Source: Candidatus Babeliales bacterium (GTDB taxonomy: Bacteria > Babelota > Babeliae > Babelales > UASB340). Taken from it: 32,000 bases of DNA. Positions 2,035 through 19,914 of the stretch are shown here, in pieces. Below the pieces are notes generated by a model. That model had not been told where the DNA came from and did not search any database. It saw nothing but the letters and a program-made list of their open reading frames with translations. Position 1 is the stretch's first letter; each line of letters begins with the position of its first letter. The stretch lies in the NCBI GenBank assembly GCA_023133515.1, contig JAGLWI010000005.1:8434-40433 (forward strand). Direction: 5' to 3'. Both the position numbers and the translations under genes were made by a program.

Positions 2035-2080
2035 ATCCTTCGACTACGAGCCTTCGGCTCTTCGCTCAGGACGAGCGGTA
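2035..2080. repeat. Partial/variant copy of the dispersed GC-rich palindromic element
   Basis: TCCTTCGAC...CTCAGGACGAGCG matches the right arm ATCCTTCGACAAGCTCAGGATGAGCGC. It is interrupted by the hairpin GAGCCTTCGGCTC (2048-2060, cUUCGg-type loop). It starts 4 nt after the OMP1 stop codon. Confidence 0.6.
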
Positions 2081-2104
2081 GAAAAAGATTAATTAAAAAA
2101 ATTA

Positions 2105-2131
2105 GGGTCGGAAAATTTCCGGCCCTTTTTT
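2105..2131 (+). terminator. Rho-independent terminator candidate downstream of OMP paralog 1
   Basis: Stem GGGTCGG / CCGGCCC (one G-U pair), loop AAAATTT, followed by TTTTTT. Confidence 0.55.
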
Positions 2132-2143
2132 ATTGCCCAAAAT

Positions 2144-2209
2144 CCCAAAGCTTACGCTTTGGGCTAACTCAGTGTCGCATTGCCAAAAGGCAAAGCTCTT
2201 TTGAATTTT
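2144..2209. repeat. Structured repeat, left copy (B-L)
   Basis: Hairpin CCCAAAGC-TTAC-GCTTTGGG (2144-2163) and hairpin TTGCC-AAAA-GGCAA (2180-2193). Its reverse complement matches 3667-3715 nearly base for base. Confidence 0.7.
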
Positions 2210-2236
2210 ACATTAATTTTGTTAGGTATTGTTTAA

Positions 2237-2692
2237 ATGTCGAATCACACGTATTCAAGTATGTTTTATCATATTATTTGGTCAACCAAAAATCGTAAGC
2301 CGTATATTAAATGTGAATTTAAATCAAAATTATATGATTTTATTGGAAAAATAATTGTAACAAAAGAATGGATTCCGCTTGCAATCAATGGGACCTCAGA
2401 TCATATACATGTTCTTTTTCAATTATTTCCCAATTATAAAGTTTCTGATGTAGTTTGTTGTATAAAGGCAAATTCTTCTCGTTTTATGAGAGATAATTTT
2501 ATTTCAGAGTTTTTGTGGCAAGGAGGTTATTCAGTTTTTACTGTTGATAAAAAACTATTACCAAAAATAAAAAATTATATTGCAAAACAGGAACAACATC
2601 ATGCCGTATTAACATTTGAAGATGAGCTTATGCTTTTGCTAAAACGAAATAGGATTTCTTATGGTGATTATTTTAAAAGAAAATTGTTATAA
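2237..2692 (+). CDS. IS200/IS605-family Y1 (HUH) transposase, RAYT-like
   Basis: 151 aa. Motifs: YHIIWSTKNRKPYI, HUH motif DHIHVLF, WQGGYSVFTV, and the catalytic-Tyr helix NYIAKQEQHH. This is the layout of IS200 TnpA (YHIVF..DHIHML..GYY..YI..Q). No clear RBS. Confidence 0.8.
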   Translation: MSNHTYSSMFYHIIWSTKNRKPYIKCEFKSKLYDFIGKIIVTKEWIPLAINGTSDHIHVLFQLFPNYKVSDVVCCIKANSSRFMRDNFISEFLWQGGYSVFTVDKKLLPKIKNYIAKQEQHHAVLTFEDELMLLLKRNRISYGDYFKRKLL

Positions 2693-2699
2693 CACATCT

Positions 2700-2806
2700 T
2701 TGAGCACCCGTTAGGGTGCAATACTGAGTTAGCCCAAAGGACCCTCCTGAGCTACGTCGAAGGACGTAAGCTTTGGGCTATGTCAAAGGACGTAAGTTTT
2801 GGGCTT
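2700..2806. repeat. Structured repeat, middle copy (B-M)
   Basis: Hairpin GCACCC-GTTA-GGGTGC (2704-2719). Stem AGCCCAAAG (2731-2739) / CTTTGGGCT (2771-2779) encloses CCTCCTGAGCTACGTCGAAGG. The 20-nt segment AAGGACGTAAGCTTTGGGCT (2760-2779) is repeated at 2786-2805 with 1 mismatch. Confidence 0.7.
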
Positions 2807-2821
2807 GAAAAAATAAAATTA

Positions 2822-2866
2822 TCCTTGTAAAATCGAACTTGAACCTCGAAATTACAAGGAGTTTTT
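2822..2866 (+). terminator. Hairpin / terminator candidate after the transposase unit
   Basis: 9-bp stem TCCTTGTAA (2822-2830) / TTACAAGGA (2852-2860) plus an inner TCGA/TCGA pairing, followed by GTTTTT. Confidence 0.45.
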
Positions 2867-2943
2867 ATAAAGAAAAACAGTCTATAGGCTCTAAATCATT
2901 ATAACCTAAGATTTTATAAAAACGTGAAACTAAAAGCTAAACA

Positions 2944-2994
2944 TTGACAAACTCATTTTTAATTGTTACCTAATAAGTATACAAAAAAGTATAC
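2944..2994 (+). promoter_or_regulatory. Candidate promoter and operator of the toxin-antitoxin operon
   Basis: TTGACA at 2944-2949 with only weak -10 candidates (TACCTA at N17, TAATAA further downstream). AAGTATAC occurs twice (2975-2982 and 2987-2994), 12 bp apart, each containing the palindrome GTATAC. The second copy ends 23 nt upstream of the antitoxin ATG. Confidence 0.35.
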
Positions 2995-3016
2995 CTGTTA
3001 AGTCTATGGAGAAAAT

Positions 3017-3265
3017 ATGTCAAAAATGGTAAGAATCAGCGAAGAAACAAGCACAAATTTAACTGCACTACAAAAATCTACAGGAAAATCCAAAGTTACA
3101 TTAGTTGAAATAGCTATCGACAAGTTATATAAAGATTTTTTTTTACTCAAAGCAAACAGAGCATATGAAAAATTAAAAAAAAATAAAAAAAAATGGAATG
3201 AAGAATTAAAAGAACGAGAAAGCTGGGAAAATACATCAAATGATGGATTAATTAATAATGAATAA
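3017..3265 (+). CDS. Ribbon-helix-helix (CopG/MazE-type) antitoxin
   Basis: 82 aa. GGAG lies 5-6 nt upstream of the ATG. The N-terminus VRISEETSTNLTALQKSTGKSKVTLVEIAIDKLY fits a strand-helix-helix pattern. The C-terminal tail is acidic and Trp-containing. The gene overlaps the toxin gene by 8 nt. Confidence 0.65.
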   Translation: MSKMVRISEETSTNLTALQKSTGKSKVTLVEIAIDKLYKDFFLLKANRAYEKLKKNKKKWNEELKERESWENTSNDGLINNE

Positions 3266-3611
3266 GCTTAAGCCTTCTCGCGGAGAAATCTGGTTTGCAA
3301 ATTTAAATCCAATAGTTGGCCACGAACAATCTAAATCAAGACCTTGCCTAATAATATCAGTTAACCAATTTAATTATGGGCCAGCAGAACTTGTTGTTAT
3401 TCTTCCTATGACAACAAAAAATAAAAATCTTCCTTGGTACGTAGAAATTAATCCTCCAGAAGGAGGAATTAAATTAAAATCATTTATAATCTGTGATCAA
3501 GTAAGAACAATTTCTAAAAAAAGATTAATTGATAAATCTCTAGGCATAATTCACCAAAAAACTTTATACCAAATTGAAAAACGATTAGAAATATTACTAG
3601 GATTAAATTAA
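3258..3611 (+). CDS. mazF: MazF/PemK(Kid)-family endoribonuclease toxin
   Basis: 117 aa. RGEIWFANLNPIVGHEQSKSRPCLIIS closely parallels Kid/PemK RGEIWLVSLDPTAGHEQQGTRPVLIV. ICDQVRTISKKRL parallels RCDQPRTID. Confidence 0.85.
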   Translation: MNKLKPSRGEIWFANLNPIVGHEQSKSRPCLIISVNQFNYGPAELVVILPMTTKNKNLPWYVEINPPEGGIKLKSFIICDQVRTISKKRLIDKSLGIIHQKTLYQIEKRLEILLGLN

Positions 3612-3632
3612 TTTAGCTCAAATATGTGTGAT

Positions 3633-3660
3633 TTGACATATAAATAATACTTAATAAAAT
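3633..3660 (+). promoter_or_regulatory. Candidate sigma70-type promoter for OMP paralog 2
   Basis: TTGACA (3633-3638), 16-nt spacer, TAAAAT (3655-3660). The predicted start falls at the first bases of repeat 3667-3773. Confidence 0.4.
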
Positions 3661-3666
3661 TAATAT

Positions 3667-3773
3667 AAAATTCAAAAGAGCTTTGCCTTTTTGCAATGCA
3701 ACACTTAGTTAGCCCAATGGACCCTCCTGAGCCCTGAGCTTGTCGAAGGGTCGAAGGACGTTAGCTTTGGGCC
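3667..3773. repeat. Structured repeat, right copy (B-R), inverted relative to 2144-2209
   Basis: AAAATTCAAAAGAGCTTTGCCTTTTTGCAATGCAACACTTAGTTAGCCC matches the reverse complement of 2161-2209 with a few mismatches. The GCCCAA..TTGGGC stem carries a ~45-nt loop insert with duplicated CCTGAGC and TCGAAGG cores. The repeat ends 4 nt before the OMP2 RBS. Confidence 0.75.
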
Positions 3774-3789
3774 ATTTGGAGCAAAATTT

Positions 3790-5262
3790 ATGAAAAAATT
3801 TTTTAAAGTTATTTTTATTTTAATTATCAGTATAAATACAGCCTTTGCAACACACACAACAGAAAAAACATTCTTTTTGCCAAGATCTCATGGTGTAAAT
3901 TTACCAATGGAATATACAGCATGGAATGAATTTTTATCTCAAAACACAGAGGAACAATTTGGTACCAATTTTCAAGTAGTTCCATTTTATCAAGAATCCT
4001 TAAACGGAACTGATCTTGGAAAATATTTTGGTGTTAAAAACAAAATATCTTTCAATCTTCATTCTGGACAAGAAGAAGATGTACGTGGCACATACATAAT
4101 TCACGATGCAACAACAGCCGCAGGAAATGTAAATCTTGCAACAATAGAAATATATCCTCATCAAAAAGCAACTGGAATTCGTTTTGATTACTTTCAAAAT
4201 TTAGAAAGAGTAATGGAAAATCTTTATCTAAAAGTAGCAATACCTATAATTTTTTTAAAAAATACTATGAACTTGAAAATCAAAGAAGGAACCGCAAAAG
4301 ATACTTTTCTTGATTATTTCAAAGGCAAAATAGACATCGACTTTGATAGCGCTGGAATAATAAGTGGTCAAGCTCACAACAGCGCTCAAGAATCACTTAC
4401 ACATGCAAAAATTCCACATGATTACGATTACACTGCTGTAGATGTTGCTGATATTGATATCATATTTGGATATAATGTTTTAAATAACAATCGATATAAG
4501 GCATCAATAAATTTAGGATTCTCTTTCCCAACAGGTGAAGAACCAAGTGGTTTTTATGTTTTCGAATCAATAGTTGGTGGTGGAAACCATTGGTCATTAA
4601 ATGCAGGAATTAATTCCAATGCAACCATGTGGAAACATAAATCCAAAAACCTAAAGTTAAACTTTGCCTTAAATTACAAATATCTTTTTCAAAGCACAGA
4701 AAAAAGAACTCTCAAATTAAAAGGGCTACCATACAGTCAATATTATTTAATAGGAAAAATAGGAAGCATTCGAAATCAAACAAAATTCATACCTGCCGCA
4801 AATATCCTTACAAGAAATATTAATGTTACACCAGGAAGCCAAATTGATACCATTTTGGGCTTTTCTTATAATCATTCAGGCCTTATTATTGATGTTGGAT
4901 ACAATTTTTTCTGGAAAAATAAAGAATCCGTATCTTCAAAAGACCACTGGTTTGACGGAAAATATGGAATTTTACATCCAGAACAAATATTGGAAGGAAA
5001 CAAGTCTTTTGAACTAAGCGATAATCCTGTTGCGGCAGGTGTAGATGGTGGAGCAGAAAAATTGATTTATGAGCAAGATTTGGATATTCAAGCAGCCTCA
5101 ACTCCGTCTTTAGTAACTCATAAAATCTATGGTAGTTTAGGGTACCTATGTTTAAAGTTAAAACGTCCTATAATGCTTGGATTTGGATGTAGTTATGAAT
5201 TTGCCGAAAAATATGCCTTAGAAAACTGGCAAATTTGGACAAAAATGGGGATAACTTTTTAA
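3790..5262 (+). CDS. Putative outer-membrane beta-barrel protein, paralog 2
   Basis: GGAG lies 8 nt upstream of the ATG. Signal peptide MKKFFKVIFILIISINTAFA. C-terminus ...WTKMGITF. Blocks shared with paralog 1: KTFFLPR.HGVN..MEYT.WNE, RGTYIIHD, STEKRT, IPAAN.LTR, THKIYG. Confidence 0.6.
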   Translation: MKKFFKVIFILIISINTAFATHTTEKTFFLPRSHGVNLPMEYTAWNEFLSQNTEEQFGTNFQVVPFYQESLNGTDLGKYFGVKNKISFNLHSGQEEDVRGTYIIHDATTAAGNVNLATIEIYPHQKATGIRFDYFQNLERVMENLYLKVAIPIIFLKNTMNLKIKEGTAKDTFLDYFKGKIDIDFDSAGIISGQAHNSAQESLTHAKIPHDYDYTAVDVADIDIIFGYNVLNNNRYKASINLGFSFPTGEEPSGFYVFESIVGGGNHWSLNAGINSNATMWKHKSKNLKLNFALNYKYLFQSTEKRTLKLKGLPYSQYYLIGKIGSIRNQTKFIPAANILTRNINVTPGSQIDTILGFSYNHSGLIIDVGYNFFWKNKESVSSKDHWFDGKYGILHPEQILEGNKSFELSDNPVAAGVDGGAEKLIYEQDLDIQAASTPSLVTHKIYGSLGYLCLKLKRPIMLGFGCSYEFAEKYALENWQIWTKMGITF

Positions 5263-5293
5263 AAAACGTTGTTTTTTATCATTTTTTATATTT

Positions 5294-5391
5294 AGAACTT
5301 ATACGAAAATTCAAATAAATTTGCAATGCGCTCATCCTGAGCTTGTCGAAGGATGAAGCGCTGTATCCTTCGACAAGCTCAGGATGAGCGC
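5294..5391. repeat. Palindromic element copy A1 (REPIN/MITE-like)
   Basis: Perfect 27-nt inverted repeat: GCGCTCATCCTGAGCTTGTCGAAGGAT (5328-5354) and ATCCTTCGACAAGCTCAGGATGAGCGC (5365-5391), separated by a 10-nt spacer. The AT-rich left extension AGAACTTATACGAAAATTCAAATAAATTTGCAAT is shared with copies at 7274 and 19802. Confidence 0.85.
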
Positions 5392-5437
5392 GTTGCTTAA
5401 TTTTTTTATGTTTTTTATCTCAAAATATATATACTAT

Positions 5438-5465
5438 TTGACAATTTTCTGCCTAAAATCATACT
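5438..5465 (+). promoter_or_regulatory. Candidate promoter for ORF 5544..7265
   Basis: TTGACA (5438-5443), 16-nt spacer, CATACT (5460-5465). Confidence 0.3.
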
Positions 5466-5543
5466 AGTAATAAGTTAATTAAAATTAGTTATAAAATAAT
5501 TTAAAAAATTAAAAATTAGGGATAAAAAACGGAGGTTATCAAA

Positions 5544-7265
5544 ATGATAAAAAACATTAGAAATGTATTTTTCAAAACATTTACTTGGATATTTTTAGCA
5601 ATATCCGCTTTTTCTTTTACTAATACATATTCCCAGGTTCAAGTTCACAGATTGCAATCTCTTTCACAACAAAGTGCAGACTGTGGTTTTTATGCTACTT
5701 GGGGAGCAAGCTGTATGGCTCAAAACAACTCTTTAAACGAAGCAAGAAAAATATTATTAGATAGAAACTTATTTAATCAAAAATTAATAAATTGGAAGAA
5801 AAACATAAAAAAATATAATGGTACAAAAACCAATATAAATGGTAATGAAATGCATAAATTCGTTCTTCCAACTCTAAACAACAAAGAACACATAACTATT
5901 ATCGATAGTCCAAAACATTTCAACGCTATAAAATCAAACGTTGCTGTTCCTTGTGAACTTATAAAAGGAATCGAAGAATTTCGAAAAAATGGAATTCCTC
6001 ATGCCATTATATACAATCAAGGTGGACACTGGGTTGGCTATGGAATTAGAAAAGAAAACAGACAAACTATAATTTTTAAAACAAATTCTTGCGGAACATC
6101 GGAAAATAAATATGTAGCCAAAAATGGAACAATTGAAGATATGTTATACAAATGGTTTACAGGCCAAGAAAAACTTATTCCAGGTGAAATAATTCAAGAA
6201 ATCGATAGAATTGCAAATACGATTAACTTTAATCAAGATATATTATCTGCCAAAAATTACATTTATAACTTATTTAATAAAGTAATACTTCTTGGATTGC
6301 AAAACACAAAAAGTTACTGCAATATTCTTATTAATAATTTTGATATCATAAAGAATTTTGGACCAGATGCTATAAAAGAAAGTTTCGAAATTTACATTTT
6401 AAATATTTCTAAAAATATAGAAAGATTTAAAAATTATGCTAGTCTTCAACTATATTCTAATTATAAAAATGTTAATATTACAAATGAAAACGCACCATAC
6501 ATACTTAAAAAAATAGCTGATCAATTTAATAAACAATTCTCACTTCAAATTTTAACTTCTACTAATAATGAAAAGAATATAAATCCTTTCTGTAATGAAT
6601 ATGCATATCAAATTCTAAATAATATAATTCAGCAAAATATAAAACCAAAAAGAATAAATCCAATAATAATAAAAGAAAATAAAATCGAAAAAGAAAAATT
6701 ATTTGTTCAACCGGTTACTCCTAAAACTCAAGTTAAAAAAACTACTCCAAAAAAACAAGTTAAAAAAACCATTCAACCCACTACTCCAAAACAAGCAATA
6801 GATCCTTCTGTAATAAAACAAGTTAAACAAACAATAAAAGAAAAGATTAATGAATTTAATTCTTCCAAAGATCCTAAAAAAGCTGAACAACTTATGTTTG
6901 AAATTACTGATCTAATTATAGAATTTAGGTTATGGAAACAATATGCAAAAATGATTAGAGATATGCCAAATAAACTTGAAAAATCAAAAACAAAGGAAAA
7001 AGAAAATAAAACAAAAAAATTAAAATACAATGATGAATCTAATACTCAAATTAAACAGGCAATAAAACGCAGAATTCTTTCTCTTAAAGAACTAATGTCA
7101 AATATTTGGAAACTAAGCCAAAAAGAAAAACAAAGCCTAAATGAATATGGTATAAAAATTGAATTAAATGAAATAATCGAACTAATAGAAAGTGCTCAAT
7201 TAACAAAGCTAGAAAAAGAAAACTTTCAAAAAGACATCAATTTAATAATAACAGCTTTAGAATAG
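5544..7265 (+). CDS. Secreted hypothetical protein with N-terminal papain-fold (Josephin/UCH-like) cysteine-peptidase signature and Lys-rich C-terminal region
   Basis: GGAGG lies 8 nt upstream of the ATG. Signal peptide ...FLAISAFSFTNTYSQ. Q42-x4-C47-G (QQSADCGFYA), then H162-W (IIYNQGGHWVGYGIRK) and FKTNS. This resembles Josephin (Q-x4-C; ICNYKEHWFTVRKL..FNLNS). TPK repeats and a K/E-rich helical tail follow. Confidence 0.7.
   Translation: MIKNIRNVFFKTFTWIFLAISAFSFTNTYSQVQVHRLQSLSQQSADCGFYATWGASCMAQNNSLNEARKILLDRNLFNQKLINWKKNIKKYNGTKTNINGNEMHKFVLPTLNNKEHITIIDSPKHFNAIKSNVAVPCELIKGIEEFRKNGIPHAIIYNQGGHWVGYGIRKENRQTIIFKTNSCGTSENKYVAKNGTIEDMLYKWFTGQEKLIPGEIIQEIDRIANTINFNQDILSAKNYIYNLFNKVILLGLQNTKSYCNILINNFDIIKNFGPDAIKESFEIYILNISKNIERFKNYASLQLYSNYKNVNITNENAPYILKKIADQFNKQFSLQILTSTNNEKNINPFCNEYAYQILNNIIQQNIKPKRINPIIIKENKIEKEKLFVQPVTPKTQVKKTTPKKQVKKTIQPTTPKQAIDPSVIKQVKQTIKEKINEFNSSKDPKKAEQLMFEITDLIIEFRLWKQYAKMIRDMPNKLEKSKTKEKENKTKKLKYNDESNTQIKQAIKRRILSLKELMSNIWKLSQKEKQSLNEYGIKIELNEIIELIESAQLTKLEKENFQKDINLIITALE
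6714..6767 (+). repeat. 27-nt imperfect tandem repeat inside the CDS (VTPKTQVKK / TTPKKQVKK), with a third degenerate unit to about 6797
   Basis: GTTACTCCTAAAACTCAAGTTAAAAAA (6714-6740) and ACTACTCCAAAAAAACAAGTTAAAAAA (6741-6767). Confidence 0.7.
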
Positions 7266-7273
7266 ATAATTTA

Positions 7274-7387
7274 AAAACTTATACGAAAATTAAAACAAAT
7301 TTGCAATGGCGCTCATTCTAGTGCTGAGTATTATCGAAGTATCGAAGAATGAAGCGCTGTATCCTTCGACAAGCTCAGGATGAGCGC
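7274..7387. repeat. Palindromic element copy A2
   Basis: The right arm ATCCTTCGACAAGCTCAGGATGAGCGC is intact (7361-7387). The left arm is expanded: GCGCTCATTCTAGTGCTGAGTATTATCGAAGTATCGAAGAATGAAGCGC. The core differs at 1 position from copy 19802-19914. It starts 9 nt after the stop codon of ORF 5544..7265. Confidence 0.85.
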
Positions 7388-7456
7388 ATTATTTTAAACA
7401 TCAAATTTAAATACAGAATAAGTTCTAAAGAATAATTAACTAATCTTTATTTTTCC

Positions 7457-7485
7457 TTGAACTAAATACGCTTTAAGACTATACT
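7457..7485 (+). promoter_or_regulatory. Candidate promoter for ORF 7543..8232
   Basis: TTGAAC (7457-7462), 17-nt spacer, TATACT (7480-7485). Confidence 0.4.
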
Positions 7486-7542
7486 CTTGCCAACTAAAAG
7501 TATTTAGAGTTGTTATAATGCATTCAATTTTAATCGTTTAAA

Positions 7543-8232
7543 ATGACAAAACTTTTTCTTAAAACAATTTGTTGGCAAATATTATTTATTGCATCTTTAA
7601 CAAATTACACCAAATCTTTTTCACTAAGCCAAAACCAAACACACAATGCTATTCAAAAAGAAACAAAAAGCGAATTAGAAAAATGTACATTCTTAGAAAA
7701 TGCACTGTTATCAAATAATAAAAAACCAGCTTTTACTCAAAAATTAATAAAAACCATACTAATGATAACCATTCCTATAGCAACAAGTATTTTAATTTGT
7801 AAAACAATAGATCATTTTATTTTTATCCCATTCACATTTAAAAAAAACGATAATATTCTTAAAAATATAACAAAGAGGCACCTTAACTCATCTTCTCCAA
7901 ATTATTCTTCACACAAAAAACACATATCAAACGGATATCAAAATATTAATAGAATCATCTTTATAACTTTATCTATCGTCACTTATTTTGTAATGAAACA
8001 ATTATTAAAAGTAAAAGAAAAAACAAATCTCAAAAATCTAGAAAATTTTATAAAAAATTGGCCTAAAAATAAAATAAATACACCAGAAATATTTCATAAT
8101 AATTTCACAAATATTCATAATCAATTTTTGAAAAATAAAAAATTGAATATAAACGAATTAGAAGCAAAAAAAATAATCGTTTCTATAATTCTTGAAATGA
8201 TCGAATATAAATTAAGTTTAAACTTTTTTTAA
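7543..8232 (+). CDS. Hypothetical membrane protein
   Basis: 229 aa. Hydrophobic N-terminus and two further hydrophobic segments (LMITIPIATSILIC, IIFITLSIVTYFVM). No recognisable motif and no clear RBS. The 3' end overlaps fabF convergently by 15 nt. Confidence 0.45.
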   Translation: MTKLFLKTICWQILFIASLTNYTKSFSLSQNQTHNAIQKETKSELEKCTFLENALLSNNKKPAFTQKLIKTILMITIPIATSILICKTIDHFIFIPFTFKKNDNILKNITKRHLNSSSPNYSSHKKHISNGYQNINRIIFITLSIVTYFVMKQLLKVKEKTNLKNLENFIKNWPKNKINTPEIFHNNFTNIHNQFLKNKKLNINELEAKKIIVSIILEMIEYKLSLNFF

Positions 8233-9483: not shown

Positions 9484-9512
9484 TTATATATAAAATTTTA
9501 ATAATGAAAAAC

Positions 9513-11710: not shown

Positions 11711-11724
11711 CGATAACTCCTAAC

Positions 11725-13224
11725 TTATTTAAATAAATCTAAATTTTCCTGTAACATCTTTATTAAAAAACTTATCCTTTCCAAGGATTTTTCTTTACCT
11801 AAAATAGTCATCAATTCAAAAACTCCTGGGCTCATAATTTTCCCAGTAAGCGCCAATCTTAAAGGTTGAGCCAATGCAACCAATTTCATATCAACTTCTT
11901 TACAAACATCTTTTGCAATCTTATTTAATTCACTCGTGGTGAGTGCGCCGTAGGCGTGTCGATCATCCTGAGCCTGTCGAAGGATCGAACCATCAAATTT
12001 TTTAAGAGAAGAAATATTATTTTCATAAGATTGCATCAAACCTATACTTTTCTTTGATAACCATTTTTTTATCAAATTTAAATCCAAAACCTTTGGCGAC
12101 TTTGCAAAAGAAATTATATCTTGAACCATATTTAAAATTCTTATCGCTCTTGCTCCATATTGAGTAAAAAGTTCTTCTAACTGTTCTTTTTCCCAAAACT
12201 TTATCAACTCTTCTTTATAATTATTCTCAATATTTTCTACGGCCTTTATAAATCCTTCAAAGTCTAATTTTCTAATATAAACCCCATTCAGCCATTCAAG
12301 TTTTTTAATGTCAAAGATTGCACCCTTTTTACCAACATTATCCAAAGAAAAATGTTTTATCATTTCATCTTTTGTAAAAATCTCTTGATCACCATGAGAC
12401 CAACCAAGACGTACTAAATAATTAAAAAGAGCATCAGGCAAAAATCCTTGTACTCTATATTCATCAACACTCACTGCCGCATCACGCTTACTCAATCTAT
12501 GTCCAGATGGACCAAGAATTAAAGGCAGATGAGCAAAAACTGGTAATTTTTCATTCAATGCTTTATAAATAAAAATCTGTTTCGGTGTATTAGAAATATG
12601 ATCCTCTCCACGTATAACATGAGAGATTTTCATAAAAATATCATCTAATACAACAACAAAATTGTATGTCGGAATACCATCTTGTCTTAAAATTATAAAA
12701 TCATTTATCTGATCTATATCAACACTAATTTTTCCACGTATTACATCTTCAAACTCAATTCTTTTTTGATCTCTCGGAACACGAAATCTTATAGCATAAG
12801 GTTTTTGCAAATCCTGCTCAGAATATTTTTTATCTTTACAATTACACTGCTCTTGCTCAACATAAAATTCTTCAACTTTTTTTGGCTCAGCAGCAACTGC
12901 AGATGGCTGGCAAAAACACGGATAAGCTAATCCTTTTTCTAAAAAATCTTTTGCAATTTTTTTGTGCTCTTCAATGCGAGATAATTGATACAATACTGAT
13001 TCATCTGATAATAATCCCAACCACTTTAATGATTTAAGCTGAAATTCAACATATTCCTTTTTAGATCTTACCTGATCAGTGTCCTCAATACGTACCAAAT
13101 ATTTTCCATTATTATGTCTTGCAAACAACCAATTAAAAATAGCTACACGCACACTTCCAACATGCAAATGACCTGTTGGAGATGGAGCAAAACGAACTCT
13201 TACTTCATTTTTAAAATCTGCCAT
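11725..13224 (-). CDS. gltX: Glutamyl-tRNA synthetase
   Basis: 499 aa. RFAPSPTGHLHVGSVR (HIGH motif), RLSKRD (KMSKS-type), and the C-terminal LAQPLRLALTG. The stop lies 14 nt upstream of the fabD start. Confidence 0.9.
   Translation of the reverse strand: MADFKNEVRVRFAPSPTGHLHVGSVRVAIFNWLFARHNNGKYLVRIEDTDQVRSKKEYVEFQLKSLKWLGLLSDESVLYQLSRIEEHKKIAKDFLEKGLAYPCFCQPSAVAAEPKKVEEFYVEQEQCNCKDKKYSEQDLQKPYAIRFRVPRDQKRIEFEDVIRGKISVDIDQINDFIILRQDGIPTYNFVVVLDDIFMKISHVIRGEDHISNTPKQIFIYKALNEKLPVFAHLPLILGPSGHRLSKRDAAVSVDEYRVQGFLPDALFNYLVRLGWSHGDQEIFTKDEMIKHFSLDNVGKKGAIFDIKKLEWLNGVYIRKLDFEGFIKAVENIENNYKEELIKFWEKEQLEELFTQYGARAIRILNMVQDIISFAKSPKVLDLNLIKKWLSKKSIGLMQSYENNISSLKKFDGSILRQAQDDRHAYGALTTSELNKIAKDVCKEVDMKLVALAQPLRLALTGKIMSPGVFELMTILGKEKSLERISFLIKMLQENLDLFK
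11931..11992. repeat. Palindromic-element arm embedded in frame within gltX
   Basis: On the minus strand, GATCCTTCGACAGGCTCAGGATGATCGAC matches the arm ATCCTTCGACAAGCTCAGGATGAGCGC at about 24/27 positions. It encodes SILRQAQDDRHAYGALT. It forms a GC-rich island inside an AT-rich gene. Confidence 0.75.
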
Positions 13225-13319
13225 AAAAAATCCAATAAATTAATGAGGATAAATAATTAATTCAAAGAACAAAAATAATAAATTACTAGCTGTAATAACC
13301 ACCAATGAGGCTAATTTCA

Positions 13320-13347
13320 ATTATAAAACAAACCCGTCAAAATGCAA
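13320..13347 (-). promoter_or_regulatory. Candidate promoter for gltX-fabDG-acpP-fabF
   Basis: Minus strand: TTGCAT (13347-13342), 16-nt spacer, TATAAT (13325-13320). About 95 nt upstream of the gltX ATG. Confidence 0.4.
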
Positions 13348-13423
13348 ATTTTTATTACTTTTATTCACTTTTCTCAATTTTTAACAAACCTATTTTCACT
13401 TTTTTCTAAAAGTTTACAGATAG

Positions 13424-13454
13424 AAAACAAGGGCCACTTTATGGCCCTTGTTTT
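13424..13454 (-). terminator. Rho-independent (bidirectional-type) terminator after the TPR-like gene
   Basis: 12-bp stem AAAACAAGGGCC (13424-13435) / GGCCCTTGTTTT (13443-13454) with loop ACTTTAT. A/T tracts are built into both stem ends. Confidence 0.7.
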
Positions 13455-13471
13455 ATTACATTTTTATGTTT

Positions 13472-14206: not shown

Positions 14207-15086
14207 AAAAGATCTCCTTATTAATTAAATTTTGATGTGCAAATAAAATGGCATTCTTTATAACTTGAGAATCAGAATTGCCATGGACAACAACAACACA
14301 ACCATTAATTCCTATCAACAAAGCTCCATGATTCGCTATCGTATAATTTTTTATGTTAAAAGTTTTTATTACTGACTCTAAAGTTTTAAGTAATATGTTA
14401 CCAGAAAACCCGTCAGTTACAACGATATCTGTTCTATTATCAAAAATTCCGTAAGGTTCAATGTTACCAATAAAATTCAAATTAGATTCTTCCTTTAAAA
14501 TATCAAATGTTTTTTTTACCAAAATCGAACCTTTTCCTTCTTCGTGTCCATTGGAAAGAATTGAAACTTTAGGTCGTTTAATCCCTAAAATTCTTCTTGC
14601 ATAAGAATCTGCCATATGCGCAAATTGAACCAAATTAGATGGCCTACAATTAACGTTAGCACCAAGATCCAAAATTAATATCTCTTTTTTTCCTGTATAC
14701 AACGTACCAATTATAGCAGGTCTTTCAATTCCCTTTTGGCAACCTAAAATAAAAACTGAAGCAACCATTAAAGCACCAGAATTTCCAGCGCTTACAACAG
14801 CCTTGCATTTTTCTTGTTTAACACTTTGTACTGCTTGTACAAGTGATGAATCCATCTTTTTTTTAAAAGATTTAACTGGATCCTCTCCCATACCAATCTG
14901 TTGATTAGTATTAGAAATTAAAATGTTATATTTTTGCCAAGAAGAATCATATTGATTTAAAAGAAAAAAAATTCGATCTTTTGAACCAAATAAAACTACC
15001 CAAACTCCAGCCTTTGCAGCAAGCAATGCTCCTAAAACAACCTGCTCTGGAGCATGATCGCCCCCCATTGCATCTACCGCTATCAT
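14166..15086 (-). CDS. plsX: Phosphate acyltransferase
   Basis: 306 aa. The N-terminus MIAVDAMGGDHAPE is characteristic of PlsX, along with SAGNSGALM and DGFSGNI. Confidence 0.85.
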   Translation of the reverse strand: MIAVDAMGGDHAPEQVVLGALLAAKAGVWVVLFGSKDRIFFLLNQYDSSWQKYNILISNTNQQIGMGEDPVKSFKKKMDSSLVQAVQSVKQEKCKAVVSAGNSGALMVASVFILGCQKGIERPAIIGTLYTGKKEILILDLGANVNCRPSNLVQFAHMADSYARRILGIKRPKVSILSNGHEEGKGSILVKKTFDILKEESNLNFIGNIEPYGIFDNRTDIVVTDGFSGNILLKTLESVIKTFNIKNYTIANHGALLIGINGCVVVVHGNSDSQVIKNAILFAHQNLINKEIFYGICEKSFASVAT

Positions 15087-15112
15087 AAAAAGCCTTATTG
15101 AATTTTAGTTTT

Positions 15113-15382
15113 TTATTCTTTAGAACTCGCAGGAACATCTTTTTGTGCTCCAGCACCCTGCTCAACCTTAGTTTGTCTTGTTTGATTACGTTCATACATA
15201 CGTTCAGATTTTGTTCGAATAACCTTTACTCCTTTATAATGCCCACACTCTTTGCAAACTTGATGTGGTAAAACAGGATTGCCACATGTTTGACAATTAG
15301 ATAGTGTTGAAAATACCAAGCCTTTATTAGCTGATCTTTTATCACGTCTAGATTTTGAAACTTTTCTTTTTGGTACTGGCAT
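15113..15382 (-). CDS. rpmF: 50S ribosomal protein L32 with a C-terminal extension
   Basis: MPVPKRKVSKSRRDKRSANKG...CQTCGNPVLPHQVCKECGHYKG. At 89 aa it is about 30 aa longer than typical L32. Confidence 0.85.
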   Translation of the reverse strand: MPVPKRKVSKSRRDKRSANKGLVFSTLSNCQTCGNPVLPHQVCKECGHYKGVKVIRTKSERMYERNQTRQTKVEQGAGAQKDVPASSKE

Positions 15383-15777
15383 AATTTTATACTCCCAACA
15401 TTTACATCAAAATTTACTAATACATTTAAAAAACAAAAAAATTTAATTTTTTTATTATATTGATTATTGAAAAAGCACAAACATTAGAACACTTTGAAAA
15501 AAGTCCAATAAAAACCTACCGTTAACTCAATGATACTTATTCAAAATTTAAACTAAACATCTTAAGCTTAATTTTTTAAAACAAAATTGTCAAAATAGAC
15601 TACATAATTCTTGTAAAATCGACAAGTTTTGGCATGCTAGATATATACAAATTGGCGTTAATTACAATAAGAAAAATATTAAAGACAATTTTTAATAACA
15701 ACATGCAAGTAAACTATAATATAAATAGTAAATTTTATTAAAAATAAACTAAAAATTAATATACAGGAGTAAATTTG

Positions 15778-16671
15778 ATGACAAAAATCACAATGGAATT
15801 AATAAAACAATTAAGAGAAAAAACACATATTGGTATGATGGATTGCAAAAATGCACTAATTGAATCAGAAGGAGATATAGAAAAAGCCATCGAAATACTA
15901 AGAAAAAAAGGTGCTGATGTTGCGCAAAAACGAGCAGATAAAGAAACCAATCATGGCAATATAGAAGCTTGCTTAAACAAAGATTCAAAATCTGGAGCTT
16001 TAGTAAAAATAGGATGCGAAACAGATTTTTCTGCAAATACAAAAGATATGAAAGATTTTGCACTAAATGTATGCAATCACATATTACAAGCAACCCCAGA
16101 ATGTATAGGTGAAGGAGAAAACTGTCTTCTCAAACAAAAAATTGTATCAGATGAAAAAATGACAGTTGAAGATAAGTTAAATGAATTGATTGCAAAAATT
16201 AGAGAAAAAATTGAAATAAAAGAATTTAAAAGATTTCAGATAAAAAAATTCGGTATAATAAATTTTTACATTCATCCCGGTGCAAATCTTGGAGTCCTAC
16301 TTGAACTTGAAACTGATCAAGCTGTTGAACAAAATATAAAAAAAATAAAACAGTTGGCTCTTGATATCTGCATGCAAGTTGCTGTTACAAATCCTTTGTG
16401 TATTAATCCATCACAATTAGATGAAAAAGTACTAGAAAAAGAACGATCACTAATCAAAGAACAACTTCTTGAACAAGGGAAACCAGAAAACATAATTGAC
16501 AAAATTACCGAAGGAAAGATGAACAAATTCTATGAACAAACTTGTCTCTTAAATCAAAAATTCATAAAAAATGATAAATTAACTGTAAAAAATCATATCA
16601 ATCAGATATCAAAAGATACAGGTTTAAAAATAGAGATTAAAAATTTTAAAAGAATGTCTATAGGAAAATAA
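15778..16671 (+). CDS. tsf: Elongation factor Ts
   Basis: ATG at 15778 lies 8 nt after AGGAG; the track start at 15775 is TTG. ELIKQLREKTHIGMMDCKNALIESEGDIEKAIEILRKKG is the UBA-like EF-Ts N-terminus. Confidence 0.9.
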   Translation: MTKITMELIKQLREKTHIGMMDCKNALIESEGDIEKAIEILRKKGADVAQKRADKETNHGNIEACLNKDSKSGALVKIGCETDFSANTKDMKDFALNVCNHILQATPECIGEGENCLLKQKIVSDEKMTVEDKLNELIAKIREKIEIKEFKRFQIKKFGIINFYIHPGANLGVLLELETDQAVEQNIKKIKQLALDICMQVAVTNPLCINPSQLDEKVLEKERSLIKEQLLEQGKPENIIDKITEGKMNKFYEQTCLLNQKFIKNDKLTVKNHINQISKDTGLKIEIKNFKRMSIGK

Positions 16672-17375
16672 TGAAAACAATCATCATAAAATTAAGTGGA
16701 GAACTTTTCTTTTCACTTACAAATCAAGAAAAAAAAGATGATAAAAAATATTTATACAACATAGCCAAACAATTAAAAGAACTAAAAAAAGATTACAGAG
16801 TAGGAATAGTTATTGGTGCAGGAAACATTTTTAGAGGTGAACAAGCAAGTAAAAAACTAGAAATAAAAATTACTACTGCTCATAATGCTGGAATGATTGC
16901 AACAATTATAAATGGTCTTTTATTCCACGATCTCTTAACAACGCAAGAAATTGATTCAATACTTTTTAGCGCAATTCATTGTCCACAAATAGCAGAAATA
17001 ATTAAACAAGACAAATTAGATAAGGCCCTTAAAGAAAATAAAATATTAATATTTTCAGGAGGAACTTCAAATCCATTCTTTACAACAGATACAACATCTG
17101 TAATACGAGCATTACAAATCGGAGCAACTGAATTTTGGAAAGGAACAAAAGTAGAAGGAATATTCACAGCAGATCCGGTTGAACAAAAAGATGCAAAACT
17201 CTTGAAAAAACTTAACTATAATCAAGTAATAGAAAAAGATTTGAAATTTATGGATTTAACTGCTATAACTCTTGCAAAACAACACAATTTAAAAATTAGA
17301 ATTTTTAATATATTTGAAGAGAATTCATTAATAAAAGCAAGTAAAGACGCAAACTTTGGAAGCGTTATTGTTTAA
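16671..17375 (+). CDS. pyrH: UMP kinase
   Basis: 234 aa. IIKLSGE, GAGNIFRG, FSGGTSNPFFTTDT. The ATG overlaps the tsf stop (TAATG). Confidence 0.85.
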   Translation: MKTIIIKLSGELFFSLTNQEKKDDKKYLYNIAKQLKELKKDYRVGIVIGAGNIFRGEQASKKLEIKITTAHNAGMIATIINGLLFHDLLTTQEIDSILFSAIHCPQIAEIIKQDKLDKALKENKILIFSGGTSNPFFTTDTTSVIRALQIGATEFWKGTKVEGIFTADPVEQKDAKLLKKLNYNQVIEKDLKFMDLTAITLAKQHNLKIRIFNIFEENSLIKASKDANFGSVIV

Positions 17376-17417
17376 ACAAGCTGCTACTTTGAAATGAGTA
17401 ACTCTTAAAATAAAGTG

Positions 17418-17517
17418 CACGCTCATCCTAAACTTGTCGAAGAATACAGCGCTGCATCCTTCGACAAGCTCAGGATGAGCGCATCTTTTTACATTTTAGC
17501 GCATCTTTTTACATTTT
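17418..17517. repeat. Palindromic element copy A3 plus a 20-nt tandem duplication at its right edge
   Basis: CACGCTCATCCTAAACTTGTCGAAGAAT...ATCCTTCGACAAGCTCAGGATGAGCGC (to 17482). AGCGCATCTTTTTACATTTT at 17478-17497 is repeated exactly at 17498-17517. Confidence 0.8.
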
Positions 17518-17578
17518 AAAGTATACCTAGACAACAGCTTGAGCTAGTTAAATAAAAACTTAAACAGAGGATAATTTT

Positions 17579-18163
17579 ATGGAACGGGTAGTTTTTGCAG
17601 AAGGAAACATCAAGGATTTTGAAGAATCAGCCAAAAAAGAAATGGAAAAACCAATCAAACATTTTGAAAAAGAACTCTCTGCAATCAGAACAGGAAGAGC
17701 CTCCACAGCTCTTGTAGAAAATTTAAAAGTGGAATGTTACGGTCAAATGATGTCATTAAGAGAACTTGCTACATTAAGTTCACCCGAAGCAAGGCTCATC
17801 ACAATTCAACCTTGGGATAAAAGCATCATAGGTGATATTGAAAAAGCAATTCTAGCATCGGATGTTGGAATTACTCCTGTAAATGACGGTAAAATAATAA
17901 GATTACAACTTCCTCAAATGAGTGAAGCCAGACGAGAAGATTTAAAAAAAATTTTAGGCAAAAAAACAGAAGAATGTCGCATTGGTGTTAGAAATATAAG
18001 AAAAGATTTTCACAATCAACTTAGAGATGCAGAAAAAGCTCGCGGAATATCTGAAGATTTTGCAAAAAGATTAAATGATTTGCTACAAAAAATCACTGAT
18101 AGTTTTATAAAAAACGCAGATGAATTATACGAGAAAAAAGCAAATGAAATAAAATTTGTATAA
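17579..18163 (+). CDS. frr: Ribosome recycling factor
   Basis: 194 aa. LSAIRTGRASTALVENL, ITIQPWD, PQMSEARREDLKK, IRNIRKD. Confidence 0.9.
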   Translation: MERVVFAEGNIKDFEESAKKEMEKPIKHFEKELSAIRTGRASTALVENLKVECYGQMMSLRELATLSSPEARLITIQPWDKSIIGDIEKAILASDVGITPVNDGKIIRLQLPQMSEARREDLKKILGKKTEECRIGVRNIRKDFHNQLRDAEKARGISEDFAKRLNDLLQKITDSFIKNADELYEKKANEIKFV

Positions 18164-18183
18164 AAAATAGTAAAATAAAAAAA

Positions 18184-18216
18184 GAGCCTTGGATAAAATC
18201 CAAGGCTCTTTTTTTT
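18184..18216 (+). terminator. Rho-independent terminator after frr
   Basis: Stem GAGCCTTGGA (18184-18193) / TCCAAGGCTC (18199-18208), loop TAAAA, then T8. An upstream A-tract makes it potentially bidirectional. Confidence 0.75.
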
Positions 18217-18277
18217 GATCTATATCTTTTGCATAATATACATATGATGAACAAAGATTTATCATTGAATCAAACTC

Positions 18278-18305
18278 AATTGGCGGACTGTTTTGCCCGC
18301 CAATT
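18278..18305 (-). terminator. Hairpin immediately downstream of the transporter gene stop
   Basis: Stem AATTGGCGG (18278-18286) / CCGCCAATT (18297-18305), 3 nt from the stop codon at 18309-18311. The U-tract is weak. Confidence 0.4.
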
Positions 18306-18308
18306 AAA

Positions 18309-19607
18309 TTAACTAATGATTTGATTTTGCGCAACAAGCTTTTTATTAGTTGTTCCAACGTAAATTGCAATTACTATCCAAAAACCAATAACTCCTAAAG
18401 AAATTAAAGAACCGTAAACTAATAATTGAGAAAGGACAGGAAAAGATGCGGTCACTAAAGAACCTGTTCCTTTTGCAGAACGAGCTCCAAAAACATCAAT
18501 CCAACTCTTTGCTTTAAATTTTACATCTTTACTTGTTGGAAGATACATAATTTCTTTTGCCGGATTATTAAGTGAATAAGTAAAACCTTTTATTGCAATC
18601 ATAGCACCAAAAAATGTCCATAAAACAGGATGTATCCATGTCAAACAAACAGCAAGCGCGATTATACAAGGAAATGCAACTAAGCAAAAAGTTAAACCCA
18701 ATCGTCTTATAAAAATACTTGTTCCAATAAATAAAAAAGTTAATGCAAGAATATTTGCAGAAAGTCCATAGGTTGCTAAAAATTCTGTTGCCTGTTCTAC
18801 TGTATGATAAGTTTTATCAACTAAAGAATTCATTTGATAATCTAAAATTGTTGCCATAATTTCATAAAGAGTTGAAACTGCTAAAATTCCCAACAGGTAT
18901 GGTCTCGAAATTAAAAGTCTCAATCCTTCAATTGGGCCAGTTGCTTTTCTTTCTTCTGTTTTTGCAGGCATTTTATGTGAATATTTTTTCATGAAAAACT
19001 TAATTATTAATGGAACAATAAATACACAACATCCTGCAACAAAAAATAGCCACGGTAATCCCGTTTTTGATGCTTGCAAATCAACAATGTTTCCAAGAAC
19101 AGAACCAAATTGTGCACCAAACAAAATTACTGGATAACCTTTTTTTGCCTCTTTTTGATGTACACTACTTGCAACAAAAGACCAAAAAAGTGCAACAACC
19201 AAAGATCCAAAACTTTCAATAACAAAATAAGAAATCCAAGCCAATAAGCGATATTTACTTATTACAGTATTAGCTAAACCTATTGTTGGATGCTGCAATA
19301 AAAATGAGATCACAATAAAAATTATTGCATACGCAGACGCCATAACATAAATCAACTTATGTTTTTTTAGCCAGTCTACAAGTTTTGCATAAAAGATAAT
19401 AAGACATATTAGAAAAACAACAGAAAACATTTTCGCATAAGGTAGATACATACTCCCTACCATTTTTATAAAAATGGCATTTTTCATTGTACGTAGCATC
19501 CAATATGATCCAACAATAAAGAATAAAGCTCCAGAAAGAAGCCCAAATTTACAAAGATCTTCTTTTGTAAGGTCGCCCCACAAAAAACGAAATATTTTTG
19601 ATAACAT
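18309..19607 (-). CDS. Tlc/Npt-family nucleotide (ATP/ADP-type) transporter-like membrane protein
   Basis: About 432 aa with around 11-12 hydrophobic segments. The N-terminal region (GALFFIVGSYWMLRTMKNAIFIKMVG...LPYAKM...FYAKLVD) parallels Rickettsia Tlc (NYSTLRSIKDGFVV...FLKTY...YVKLCD). The start is placed at the second ATG (19607), 7 nt after AAGGAGGA. Confidence 0.55.
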   Translation of the reverse strand: MLSKIFRFLWGDLTKEDLCKFGLLSGALFFIVGSYWMLRTMKNAIFIKMVGSMYLPYAKMFSVVFLICLIIFYAKLVDWLKKHKLIYVMASAYAIIFIVISFLLQHPTIGLANTVISKYRLLAWISYFVIESFGSLVVALFWSFVASSVHQKEAKKGYPVILFGAQFGSVLGNIVDLQASKTGLPWLFFVAGCCVFIVPLIIKFFMKKYSHKMPAKTEERKATGPIEGLRLLISRPYLLGILAVSTLYEIMATILDYQMNSLVDKTYHTVEQATEFLATYGLSANILALTFLFIGTSIFIRRLGLTFCLVAFPCIIALAVCLTWIHPVLWTFFGAMIAIKGFTYSLNNPAKEIMYLPTSKDVKFKAKSWIDVFGARSAKGTGSLVTASFPVLSQLLVYGSLISLGVIGFWIVIAIYVGTTNKKLVAQNQIIS

Positions 19608-19801
19608 GATCATTCCTCCTTGGCATTGTTACAGCCAAAAAAAAATAACCATCAACATCATCAATATTGAACATAAAAATTAACTGTAATATCAAAGATT
19701 GATGATATTTAAATATTAACTAAAATTTAAAATTTGTCAATTTTGGGCAAAATTTGAGGATTTTTTATAAAAATTTAATCATTTTTGTTCTATATCTGAT
19801 A

Positions 19802-19914
19802 AGAACTTATACGAAAATTCAAATAAATTTGCAATGCGCTCATTCTAGTGCTGAGTATTATCGAAGTATCGAAGAATGAAACGCTGTATCCTTCGACAAG
19901 CTCAGGATGAGCGC
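19802..19914. repeat. Palindromic element copy A4
   Basis: Same left extension and expanded-arm variant as 7274-7387, with 1 mismatch in the ~79-nt core. It ends in ATCCTTCGACAAGCTCAGGATGAGCGC. Confidence 0.85.

Follow-up and report, generated by a model that had tools for sequence, protein, structure and literature searches.

A REPtron built on a subclass 1.2 Y1 transposase gene, and REPIN-like mobile hairpins around it, in a Babeliales genome

Short GC-rich palindromes are scattered through a 32,000-nt stretch of AT-rich DNA from a Candidatus Babeliales bacterium (GenBank assembly GCA_023133515.1, contig JAGLWI010000005.1, positions 8,434 to 40,433 of the forward strand; hereafter the window, numbered from its first letter), and they raise the question of what these elements are and which enzyme moves them. 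The GC content of the window is 29.3%, against 47-59% for the repeat elements listed below. An earlier note had taken the palindromes for one family of repetitive extragenic palindromes (REPs) paired as inverted doublets (REPINs), or of miniature inverted-repeat transposable elements, and every copy that it listed is present at or within a few bases of where it had been placed. We find that there are two families. The A copies are REPIN-like inverted dimers, plus some single and nested units, of a hairpin of about 33 nt. The B copies, previously regarded as a sub-family of A, are instead a separate family, the TTAG- or GTAG-footed REPs belonging to an IS200-like Y1 (HUH) transposase gene at 2237-2692, some of which carry an A-like module in the loop; this gene lies among the copies and had been overlooked. 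Together, the gene and its flanking inverted B REPs are a REPtron. What is new is a REPtron on a Y1 subclass thought to be REP-less, together with an abundant hairpin, seemingly undescribed, whose core is conserved across bacterial phyla; the elements themselves are of an already known kind, REP/REPIN-like mobile hairpins.

The A hairpins and their recent movement

The A copies in the window, with a short duplication that adjoins one of them, are as follows.

2035-2081, minus strand: single A-type unit, CTACCGCTCGTCCTGAGC / GAAGAGCCGAAGGCTCGTA / GTCGAAGGAT
5294-5391, plus strand: A composite, an AT-rich extension (5294-5327, 34 nt) followed by a perfect inverted dimer
7274-7387, plus strand: A composite, the extension, a left unit (7309-7352) with an expanded, degenerate apical part, and an exact right arm (7361-7387)
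11933-11995, plus strand: nested pair of A-type units within gltX (gene on the minus strand), outer CTCGTGGTGAG...TCGAACCA, inner TCATCCTGAGCCTGTCGAAGGA
17418-17482, plus strand: A dimer without the extension, in the pyrH-frr spacer
17479-17518, plus strand: tandem duplication, exact 20-nt GCGCATCTTTTTACATTTTA twice, beginning with the last four bases of the A dimer
19802-19914, plus strand: A composite, its 79-nt hairpin part 99% identical to 7309-7387

The 27-nt arm ATCCTTCGACAAGCTCAGGATGAGCGC occurs exactly five times (5328-5354 on the minus strand, 5365-5391, 7361-7387, 17456-17482 and 19888-19914) and a sixth time with 3 mismatches at 11959-11985; against these 6 occurrences, none was seen in 100 dinucleotide-preserving shuffles of the window. 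Likewise, the 15-nt core CTGAGCYTGTCGAAG was found 8 times in the window when up to 3 mismatches were allowed, where 0.42 would be expected. The perfect 27-bp inverted repeat with its 10-nt spacer, which had been recognised before, spans 5328-5391 (arms 5328-5354 and 5365-5391), and as DNA it folds with -34.7 kcal/mol (z = -13.8). Two inverted units separated by a short spacer, the architecture of a REPIN, are found in four dimers in the window and in one upstream of it, and the same dimer architecture was found in other Babeliales-like genomes. Beyond the window, one more dimer and one more unit lie upstream on the same contig, at 0.8 and 6.8 kb, and A units are thus spread across about 27 kb of the contig and occur in related genomes; the family is not confined to the window. 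In all five A dimers (5294-5391, 7274-7387, 17418-17482, 19802-19914 and 6949-7013 of L040; L-numbers denote loci from other assemblies) reading along the plus strand meets the variable or degenerate arm first and the exact arm second. This order does not depend on which way the flanking genes run, and with five of five dimers it does no more than suggest strand-specific insertion.

The 34-nt AT-rich extension is common to the three A composites and is homologous to the 5' flank of the Y1 gene. Of the pattern AAAATT[AC]AAA..TT[GT]GCAATG the window holds just 5 instances, three in the composites and two in the flanks of the Y1 gene; the earlier note had seen the extension on three copies and its ends at the B copy at 3667, and this holds.

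What is conserved in the A unit is a tag at the 5' end, which reads CGCTCA here and CCGTTCG in many other bacteria, together with a stem that covaries and the platform CT-GAGC-YT-GTCGA-AG. In the subfamily of the window the stem is lengthened to 10-11 bp and two units are paired as a long palindrome. The apical loop is often swapped for an extra mini-hairpin, as in L040 (958-992), in three units of L373 and in the unit at 2035-2081, where GAGCC-GAA-GGCTC takes the place of the loop; the last of these had been described as a half copy and is in fact a complete unit. The loop can also hold another whole unit, as seen at 3724-3759, in gltX, and in L217, L230, L232 and L239, and what had been read as one arm in gltX is a pair of nested units.

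Copies 7309-7387 and 19836-19914, 12.5 kb apart, do differ at 1 of 79 positions, as had been reported, and their flanks are unrelated. Because these copies are 99% identical and yet lie in unrelated surroundings, we conclude that A has been copied recently. L040 and L041 have the unit at 2035-2081; in three other samples (L042-L044, 99.2-99.8% identical) GTTAAT stands in its place, with no target duplication visible. The ribosome recycling factor protein, 62-75% identical to that of named members, places the window in the Babeliales/Dependentiae, and we compared the pyrH-frr spacer with that of relatives in this group. Here the spacer is 203 nt long and holds the dimer, whereas in the 12 closest relatives with pyrH before frr it is 0-47 nt long and holds no element. 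One further relative (L385, Dependentiae) has a spacer of 96 nt with a different GC-rich hairpin, GCCGTTCGCCCC...GGGGGACGACGGC, and a 5' tag of the CCGTTCG type, which suggests that this spacer is a recurrent insertion spot. The A copy in gltX is translated in frame (...SILRQAQDDRHAYGALTTSE..., ILRQAQDDR...) and the inserted segment falls within a stretch that is gapped against the solved glutamyl-tRNA synthetase structure 8i9i. In other assemblies, contigs stop at the repeats (window positions 3722, 3755 and 5291). An empty-site comparison in Sinorhizobium megaplasmids was uninformative, the match being inside a conserved coding region.

We conclude that A units have been gained and lost recently, and that their insertion sites are intergenic spacers, hairpin loops including their own, and, in frame, the inside of a gene. 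The mobile-element reading of the earlier note is upheld by the inverted dimers, the recent copies, the strain polymorphism, the lineage-specific insertion and the Y1/HUH gene in the window.

The Y1 gene, its B REPs and subclass 1.2 in other phyla

The term REPtron is used for REP/REPIN elements together with the genes for their REP-associated tyrosine transposases (RAYTs, TnpA-REP; Nunvar 2010; Bertels and Rainey 2011, PMC3116915; Ton-Hoang 2012, PMC3333891; Quentin 2018, PMC6006769). The features around the Y1 gene are as follows.

2144-2172, minus strand: short-loop B REP, CTGAGTTAG + CCCAAAGC-GTAA-GCTTTGGG, upstream of the Y1 gene with its foot gene-proximal
2237-2692, plus strand: intact IS200-like Y1 (HUH) transposase gene, 151 aa, PF01797 1.8e-25
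2702-2719, plus strand: small hairpin GAGCACCC-GTTA-GGGTGC, between the Y1 stop codon and the downstream REP
2724-2777, plus strand: long-loop B REP, CTGAGTTAG + CCCAAAG ... GCTTTGGG
2782-2807, plus strand: partial tandem duplicate, 26 nt, of the 3' half of B REP 2724-2777
3017-3611, plus strand: two-gene toxin-antitoxin module, PemK/MazF toxin PF02452 1.4e-27, NCBIfam MazF-like
3621-3717, minus strand: inverted duplicate of 2159-2255, 90% over 97 nt, covering part of the REP, the 5' flank of the Y1 gene and the 6 codons at its start
3704-3771, plus strand: long-loop B REP with two nested A-type units inside, CTCCTGAGC / CCTGAGCTTGTCGAAGG / GTCGAAGGAC (3724-3759)

In the Y1 protein the HUH motif is H56-I-H58 and the catalytic tyrosine is Y114; H56, H58 and Y114 are invariant in the homologue alignment. 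The protein scores 78.2 bits with the NCBIfam model transpos_IS200 (cut-off 55) and 18.8 bits with the RAYT model REP_Tyr_transpos (cut-off 80), and it lacks the class-2 RAYT signature Y...NP. Its motifs DHIH, WQ and NYIAKQEQHH are the signature of TnpA-Y1 subclass 1.2 (PMC6006769), and the solved structures closest to it are the TnpA proteins of IS608 and ISDra2.

The gene is bracketed by inverted B REPs, one upstream on the minus strand and two downstream, every foot pointing toward the gene. The true feet read GTTAG downstream of the gene (2728-2732 and 3708-3712) and CTAAC upstream of it (2164-2168), with TTAG in place of GTAG. The link to the GTAG of enterobacterial REPs that had been proposed earlier was right in spirit, although the CTAC/GTAG tetranucleotides then cited are not these feet. 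As DNA, the REPs at 2144-2172 and 2724-2777 fold with -8.9 kcal/mol (z = -5.35) and -15.3 kcal/mol (z = -5.0), respectively. The loop of the latter contains an A-like module, CTCC-TGAGCTACGTCGAA-GGA (2744-2764), and the nesting seen at 3704-3771 recurs in other phyla (L217, L230, L232 and L239). The arrangement is shared by Y1 homologues 57-79% identical to ours in Babeliales-like contigs (L125, L126, L371 and L373), with a GGTAG or GTTAG foot; those in L125 and L126 are flanked by the same GGTAG + CCCAA.. hairpins, and in L371, where the Y1 C-terminus is 79% identical, the hairpin GAGCACCC-GTTA-GGGTGC occupies the same position. We conclude that 2237-2692 and its flanking inverted B REPs are a REPtron. 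Within 40 kb of the contig there is no second full copy of the Y1 gene and no tnpB, so that the locus does not have the form of a multi-copy IS200/IS605 element, and a metagenome scan for close relatives of the Y1 gave just two partial loci. A GC-rich small repeat, CCAGCCTTCGC[CG]AA..GCTTCGGCGG.., is also found around the Y1 loci of Babeliales relatives (L373 600-780 and 1350-1400; L125 3920-3970), and in L373 it interrupts an A unit.

Subclass 1.2 has been described as low-copy and not IS-like, and its entry for REPs in the published table is 'no' (Quentin et al. 2018, PMC6006769). We therefore collected 80 loci with relatives of the Y1 from Acidobacteriota, Planctomycetota, Verrucomicrobiota, Bacteroidota, Chloroflexota and other phyla, 59 of which had enough flanking DNA, and compared the 300 nt on each side of the gene with control windows taken at a distance of 1.1-1.4 kb. 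At 41 of these 59 loci one flank contains an exact inverted match, 11 nt or longer, to the other flank; in the controls the figure was 4 of 59. A hairpin made of xTAG-CC, a stem and a tetraloop lay within 300 nt of the gene at 35 loci, on both sides at 23 of them, and in 1 of the 59 controls. Typical REPs of this kind lie 60-100 nt from each end of the gene (for example GATAGTAGCCCATAGCGCCAGCTATGGG), with the foot usually distal, compared with proximal in the Babeliales clade. Because both the xTAG-CC hairpins and the inverted flank matches exceed the controls, we read this as a REPtron arrangement, carried by most of the 59 loci, and this survey suggests that the REP-less description of the subclass fails more widely.

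Long-loop REPs with TG(G)AGC-N4-CG(N)AA also adjoin subclass 1.2 genes in other phyla. In these the loop is TGAGC-GAAG-CGAA, compared with TGAGC-CTGT-CGAA in A, so that the central 4 nt alone differ. We observed a second hairpin class, whose loop (T)G(G)AGC-G[AC]AG-CG(N)AA includes the stable mini-hairpin GCGAAGC; it occurs as the long-loop form of subclass 1.2 REPs, in the Y1 flanks of L053, L059, L061, L079, L084, L090 and L113. By its sequence this class looks like a sister of the A loop. A similar motif, ATTGC-GAGCGCAGCGTG-GCAAT, is dispersed in a Dehalococcoidia locus (L010 1150-1180).

Which enzyme moves the A units

The A hairpin reaches far beyond the Babeliales. In a species-representative genome collection the exact 27-mer arm was found at 39 other loci, among them Dehalococcoidia, other Chloroflexota, Acidobacteriota, Sphingomonadales, Chitinispirillaceae and TM6, with GC contents from 33% to 69%. 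The 15-nt core gave at least 120 genome matches, in Bacteroidota, Cyanobacteria, Actinomycetota, all proteobacterial classes, Nitrospirota, Planctomycetota, the candidate phyla radiation and more, and at least 120 matches in viral contigs. About 2,000 matches to the core would be expected by chance in 596 Gb, and therefore its count proves nothing; the context (stem, tag and pairing) does.

That context was assessed with one copy from each of 119 loci from many phyla. The two pairs flanking CT...AG are Watson-Crick in 90% and 83% of the loci, against 49% and 35% in shuffles (maxima 62% and 53%); the pair types are CG 76, GC 26, AT 4 and TA 1 for the one and CG 46, TA 31 and GC 22 for the other. 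The closing C-G of the unit is swapped to G-C 27 times and to T-A 6 times. In the 11-nt loop, G1/A11 and A2/G10 are near invariant, and G3 and C9 become A and T together in 7 cases and change singly in 3, a covariation that one or two events in the Babeliales lineage may account for. Because of these near-invariant positions, the G3-C9 covariation and the swaps of the closing pair, we infer that the platform would be a stack of C-G, T-A, tandem G·A/A·G and G-C with CYTGT as a pentaloop on top. The 5' tag CCGTTCG is present in 34 of 154 copies, with CCGCTCA, TGTCA and CGGTCC as variants, and inverted pairs of the core 30-75 nt apart are common in other phyla. Loci picked via one copy held 1-9 core-like matches per 8 kb when one mismatch was allowed, some of them chance matches in coding sequence. 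Tandem arrays of the core were also noted in Actinomycetota, Cyanobacteria, Dehalococcoidia and Acidobacteriota (L134, Microbacterium mangrovi, 4449-4625 and 6452-6609; L144 90-152; L159 5142-5419; L029 7128-7220), with periods of 54, about 71, 24, 14 and 24 nt.

The hairpin with this cross-phylum core seems not to have been described before. No part of the window matched Rfam at the gathering score, and a permissive scan of 5250-5450 (E up to 10) gave generic long-hairpin and microRNA matches alone, far below the cut-offs. Searches of the literature open to text search, with the DNA core (both strands, both Y variants) and with the peptides SLSKH, SLSNHE, LSLSKDE, RQAQDE, RQAHHE and FDKLRM returned primers and unrelated proteins only, and a keyword search for the element returned nothing. 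Translations of the A element such as 'LSLSKG/D', 'RQAQDER' and 'PELVEG' are a familiar source of spurious small open reading frames (ORFs). The motif is absent from the supplementary REP tables of Quentin et al. (PMC6006769). A hammerhead or other ribozyme, a tRNA-like structure and a dif/parS/LexA-type site were dropped by reasoning from the sequence, as the conserved positions do not fit them.

We propose that A units would move as folded single-stranded DNA, an HUH tyrosine enzyme cutting and rejoining them and leaving no target duplication, as for REPs and the ends of IS200/IS605 elements. In this lineage the enzyme would probably be the adjacent Y1, and any effects of the units on transcripts would be secondary. 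We assign a probability of roughly 0.55 to HUH-type single-strand mobilisation of the A units, probably by the adjacent Y1, with the pairing of enzyme and substrate drawn from sequence context. A is linked to the Y1 locus because A-type modules lie inside or beside B REPs both here and in L373 (Y1 68% identical), because the extension of the composites is shared with the Y1 flank, and because a sister loop is found in the subclass 1.2 REPs of other phyla.

Several observations weigh against this proposal. The exact A core was absent beside the subclass 1.2 genes at the 80 loci from other phyla, and matches with two substitutions there were chance-like. Conversely, no Y1 homologue was found near A copies at 39 loci by tblastn or at 159 loci with a hidden Markov model of the alignment, and when the 4327 ORFs in 1.2 Mb around 159 A-type copies were clustered, large housekeeping families only and no recurrent neighbour emerged. 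The complete 1.37-Mb genome OY968764.1 has A dimers and yet is not among the best 80 Y1 relatives; therefore A can persist without a close Y1. A units do not have the GTAG foot used by TnpA-REP enzymes, no B REPs were found away from the Y1 locus within 40 kb of the contig, and the B loops of relatives hold unrelated mini-hairpins. In addition, the polymorphism at 2035-2081 is a replacement (47 nt versus GTTAAT), which may be a gain or a loss, and not a clean insertion, and the G3-C9 covariation may reflect the few events mentioned above.

These observations could also be accounted for if the A units were moved by a different, very widespread trans-acting enzyme, or were carried by phages or plasmids, with the Y1 of the window serving the B REPs only. 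The A modules in B loops would then be ordinary insertions into exposed hairpin loops, and the unrelated mini-hairpins in the B REP loops of relatives do point to the loop as a general insertion spot. The pan-bacterial core and its presence in viral contigs, the missing GTAG foot, the lack of the core near 80 subclass 1.2 genes elsewhere and the complete genome with A dimers and no close Y1 among the best 80 all favour this account. Against it, two genomes show a local enrichment of A units near the Y1 gene, the extension of the A composites is shared with the Y1 flank, the sister loop sits in subclass 1.2 REPs of other phyla, and 1.2 Mb of context offered no alternative enzyme gene. We regard a different enzyme or carrier as possible, though short of probable.

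A much less probable explanation is that the hairpins are primarily cis-regulatory elements of the host, namely intrinsic terminators, mRNA 3'-end stabilisers or structured RNAs, kept by selection. It is true that, as had been pointed out, four copies lie soon after stop codons (at 4, 32, 9 and 43 nt; the unit at 2035-2081 begins 4 nt past the stop of ORF 439-2031), that the hairpins are very stable, that beyond the right arm the sequence is T-rich at 7387, 17482 and 19914, and that a terminator scan flags GCTCAGGATGAGC with a T-run 2-3 nt away at 7373 and 17468. However, canonical terminators exist separately from the A copies at 2104-2126 (directly after the 2035 unit), 13424-13454 and 18215-18177; the pyrH-frr copy lies in an operon spacer, one that measures 0-47 nt in 12 relatives; one copy is within the coding sequence of gltX; the unit at 2035-2081 is dispensable in near-identical strains; and no Rfam family was matched at threshold. 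Single units across phyla, placed by crude gene calls, were sense in 20 cases and antisense in 17, with 10 in convergent and 10 in divergent spacers, so that divergent spacers are not avoided, and this absence of a transcription-strand bias fits a DNA-level element. The terminator role suggested in the earlier note is thus not borne out, and a terminator or RNA role of the A units is at most secondary.

Local segmental duplication or an artefact of metagenome assembly, which might be suspected because the copies in the window all fall inside 18 kb of a metagenome-assembled genome, is effectively refuted by the unrelated flanks of the near-identical copies, the same sequences in independent assemblies from other runs, the further copies upstream of the window and the exact arm in 39 other public-genome loci.

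Wider meaning, neighbouring genes and known systems

Returning to mobilisation by an HUH enzyme, a reduced intracellular TM6 genome carries an apparently active REPtron of a subclass published as REP-less, and the Y1 of the window and the A unit offer a concrete candidate enzyme-substrate pair. A 15-nt core that is almost the same in repeats of many phyla and in viral contigs would point to one of two things, a common enzyme that spreads horizontally or a host factor, present universally, by which a tandem-G·A hairpin is read. A wider proposal, which we make tentatively and consider rather unlikely as a whole, is that the A unit could be a third pan-bacterial REP-like superfamily beside GTAG and CGTC, with the near-invariant tandem-G·A platform CT-GAGC...GTCGA-AG, a widespread HUH enzyme for which the subclass 1.2 Y1 would be the leading candidate, and spread from phylum to phylum partly on phages. 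If this were true, there would be a substrate for subclass 1.2, whose proteins are now regarded as orphan enzymes without REPs, and an explanation for small spurious ORFs of a very common kind ('LSLSKG', 'RQAQDER', 'PELVEG'). In practice, the hairpins bring assembly breaks in metagenome-assembled genomes, spurious ORF calls and in-frame insertions in essential genes.

The toxin-antitoxin module at 3017-3611, in which the PemK/MazF toxin overlaps the upstream 82-aa ORF by 8 nt, has the Y1 gene on one side and the inverted copy of that gene's 5' flank on the other, and the inverted repeat formed by 2159-2255 and 3621-3717 encloses both the Y1 gene and this module. The Y1 loci of the relatives L125, L126, L373 and L375 are without a MazF/PemK module. 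That an addiction system keeps RAYTs in place is a speculation of Bertels and Rainey (PMC3116915). ORFs 439-2031 and 3790-5262, the OMP1 and OMP2 of the earlier note, are paralogues of 530 and 490 aa with no Pfam or NCBIfam match, sharing a 74-nt stretch of 85% identity. The Y1/toxin unit lies between them, as though it had come down in the middle of a tandem pair. Elsewhere in the window, the gene at 18309-19613 (minus strand) encodes a homologue of nucleoside triphosphate/diphosphate exchange transporters (TIGR00769 7.7e-18, below cut-off), which fits the energy-parasitic intracellular lifestyle expected for Babeliales. Four copies of a 126-132-nt repeat, 60-77% identical, occupy 30674-31133 in ORF 30259-31275 (minus strand), probably a repeat-domain protein unrelated to the hairpins.

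How, then, does the locus compare with systems already known? IS200/IS605 elements act on folded single-stranded hairpins and insert without duplication. The Y1 of the window passes the IS200 model and is nearest to IS608 and ISDra2 TnpA, as in those elements; unlike them, the locus has no tnpB and one full gene in 40 kb, and its flanks are symmetric and REP-like, with GTAG-type feet and not distinct left and right ends. The Rickettsia palindromic elements, of 100-150 bp, are confined to Rickettsia. They are mentioned in PMC3733652 as well. The A copies resemble the Rickettsia elements in being GC-richer palindromes of an AT-rich obligate intracellular bacterium with an in-frame copy in a housekeeping gene (gltX), and differ from them in that the A core is pan-bacterial. 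The small dispersed repeats of cyanobacteria, attributed to work of Elhai and colleagues in 2008, are reportedly mobile units of about 21-27 nt found in cyanobacteria only. They are like A in being very small units inside other repeats and hairpins, nested and without target duplication, and are reportedly of other sequence.

REPs of the CGTC-tagged superfamily (Di Nocera et al. 2013, PMC3733652) carry CGTC, TGTC or CCTC as a terminal tag and CCA as a tail, and have a stem of 8-9 bp and a loop of 4-5 nt. The A units are like these REPs in being short hairpins shared by several phyla, mostly in head-to-head dimers, with intragenic units and no dedicated transposase gene adjoining. They differ in having a 4-11-bp stem, the 11-nt conserved GAGCYTGTCGA and the tags CCGTTCG, CGCTCA or TGTCA, which places them outside that superfamily, and the A motif string does not occur in PMC3733652.

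The locus also resembles REPtrons and REPINs. As in REPtrons, a Y1/HUH gene lies between inverted hairpins with a (G/T)TAG foot, and as with REPs and REPINs there are dispersed GC-rich hairpins, intergenic inverted dimers, no target duplication and occasional intragenic copies. For mobile DNA that bacteria have domesticated and keep by vertical descent, REP/REPIN-RAYT systems are the best example; they are known mainly from Proteobacteria, with lineage-specific REPs. Unlike in those systems, the enzyme of the window is of class 1, subclass 1.2 (Y...Q..HH), nearest to IS608/ISDra2 TnpA, and not a class-2 RAYT (Y...NP), and the family that is abundant here, A, does not directly flank the gene and is without the GTAG foot. 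Finally, classical REPs are lineage-specific, whereas the A platform is nearly invariant across phyla.

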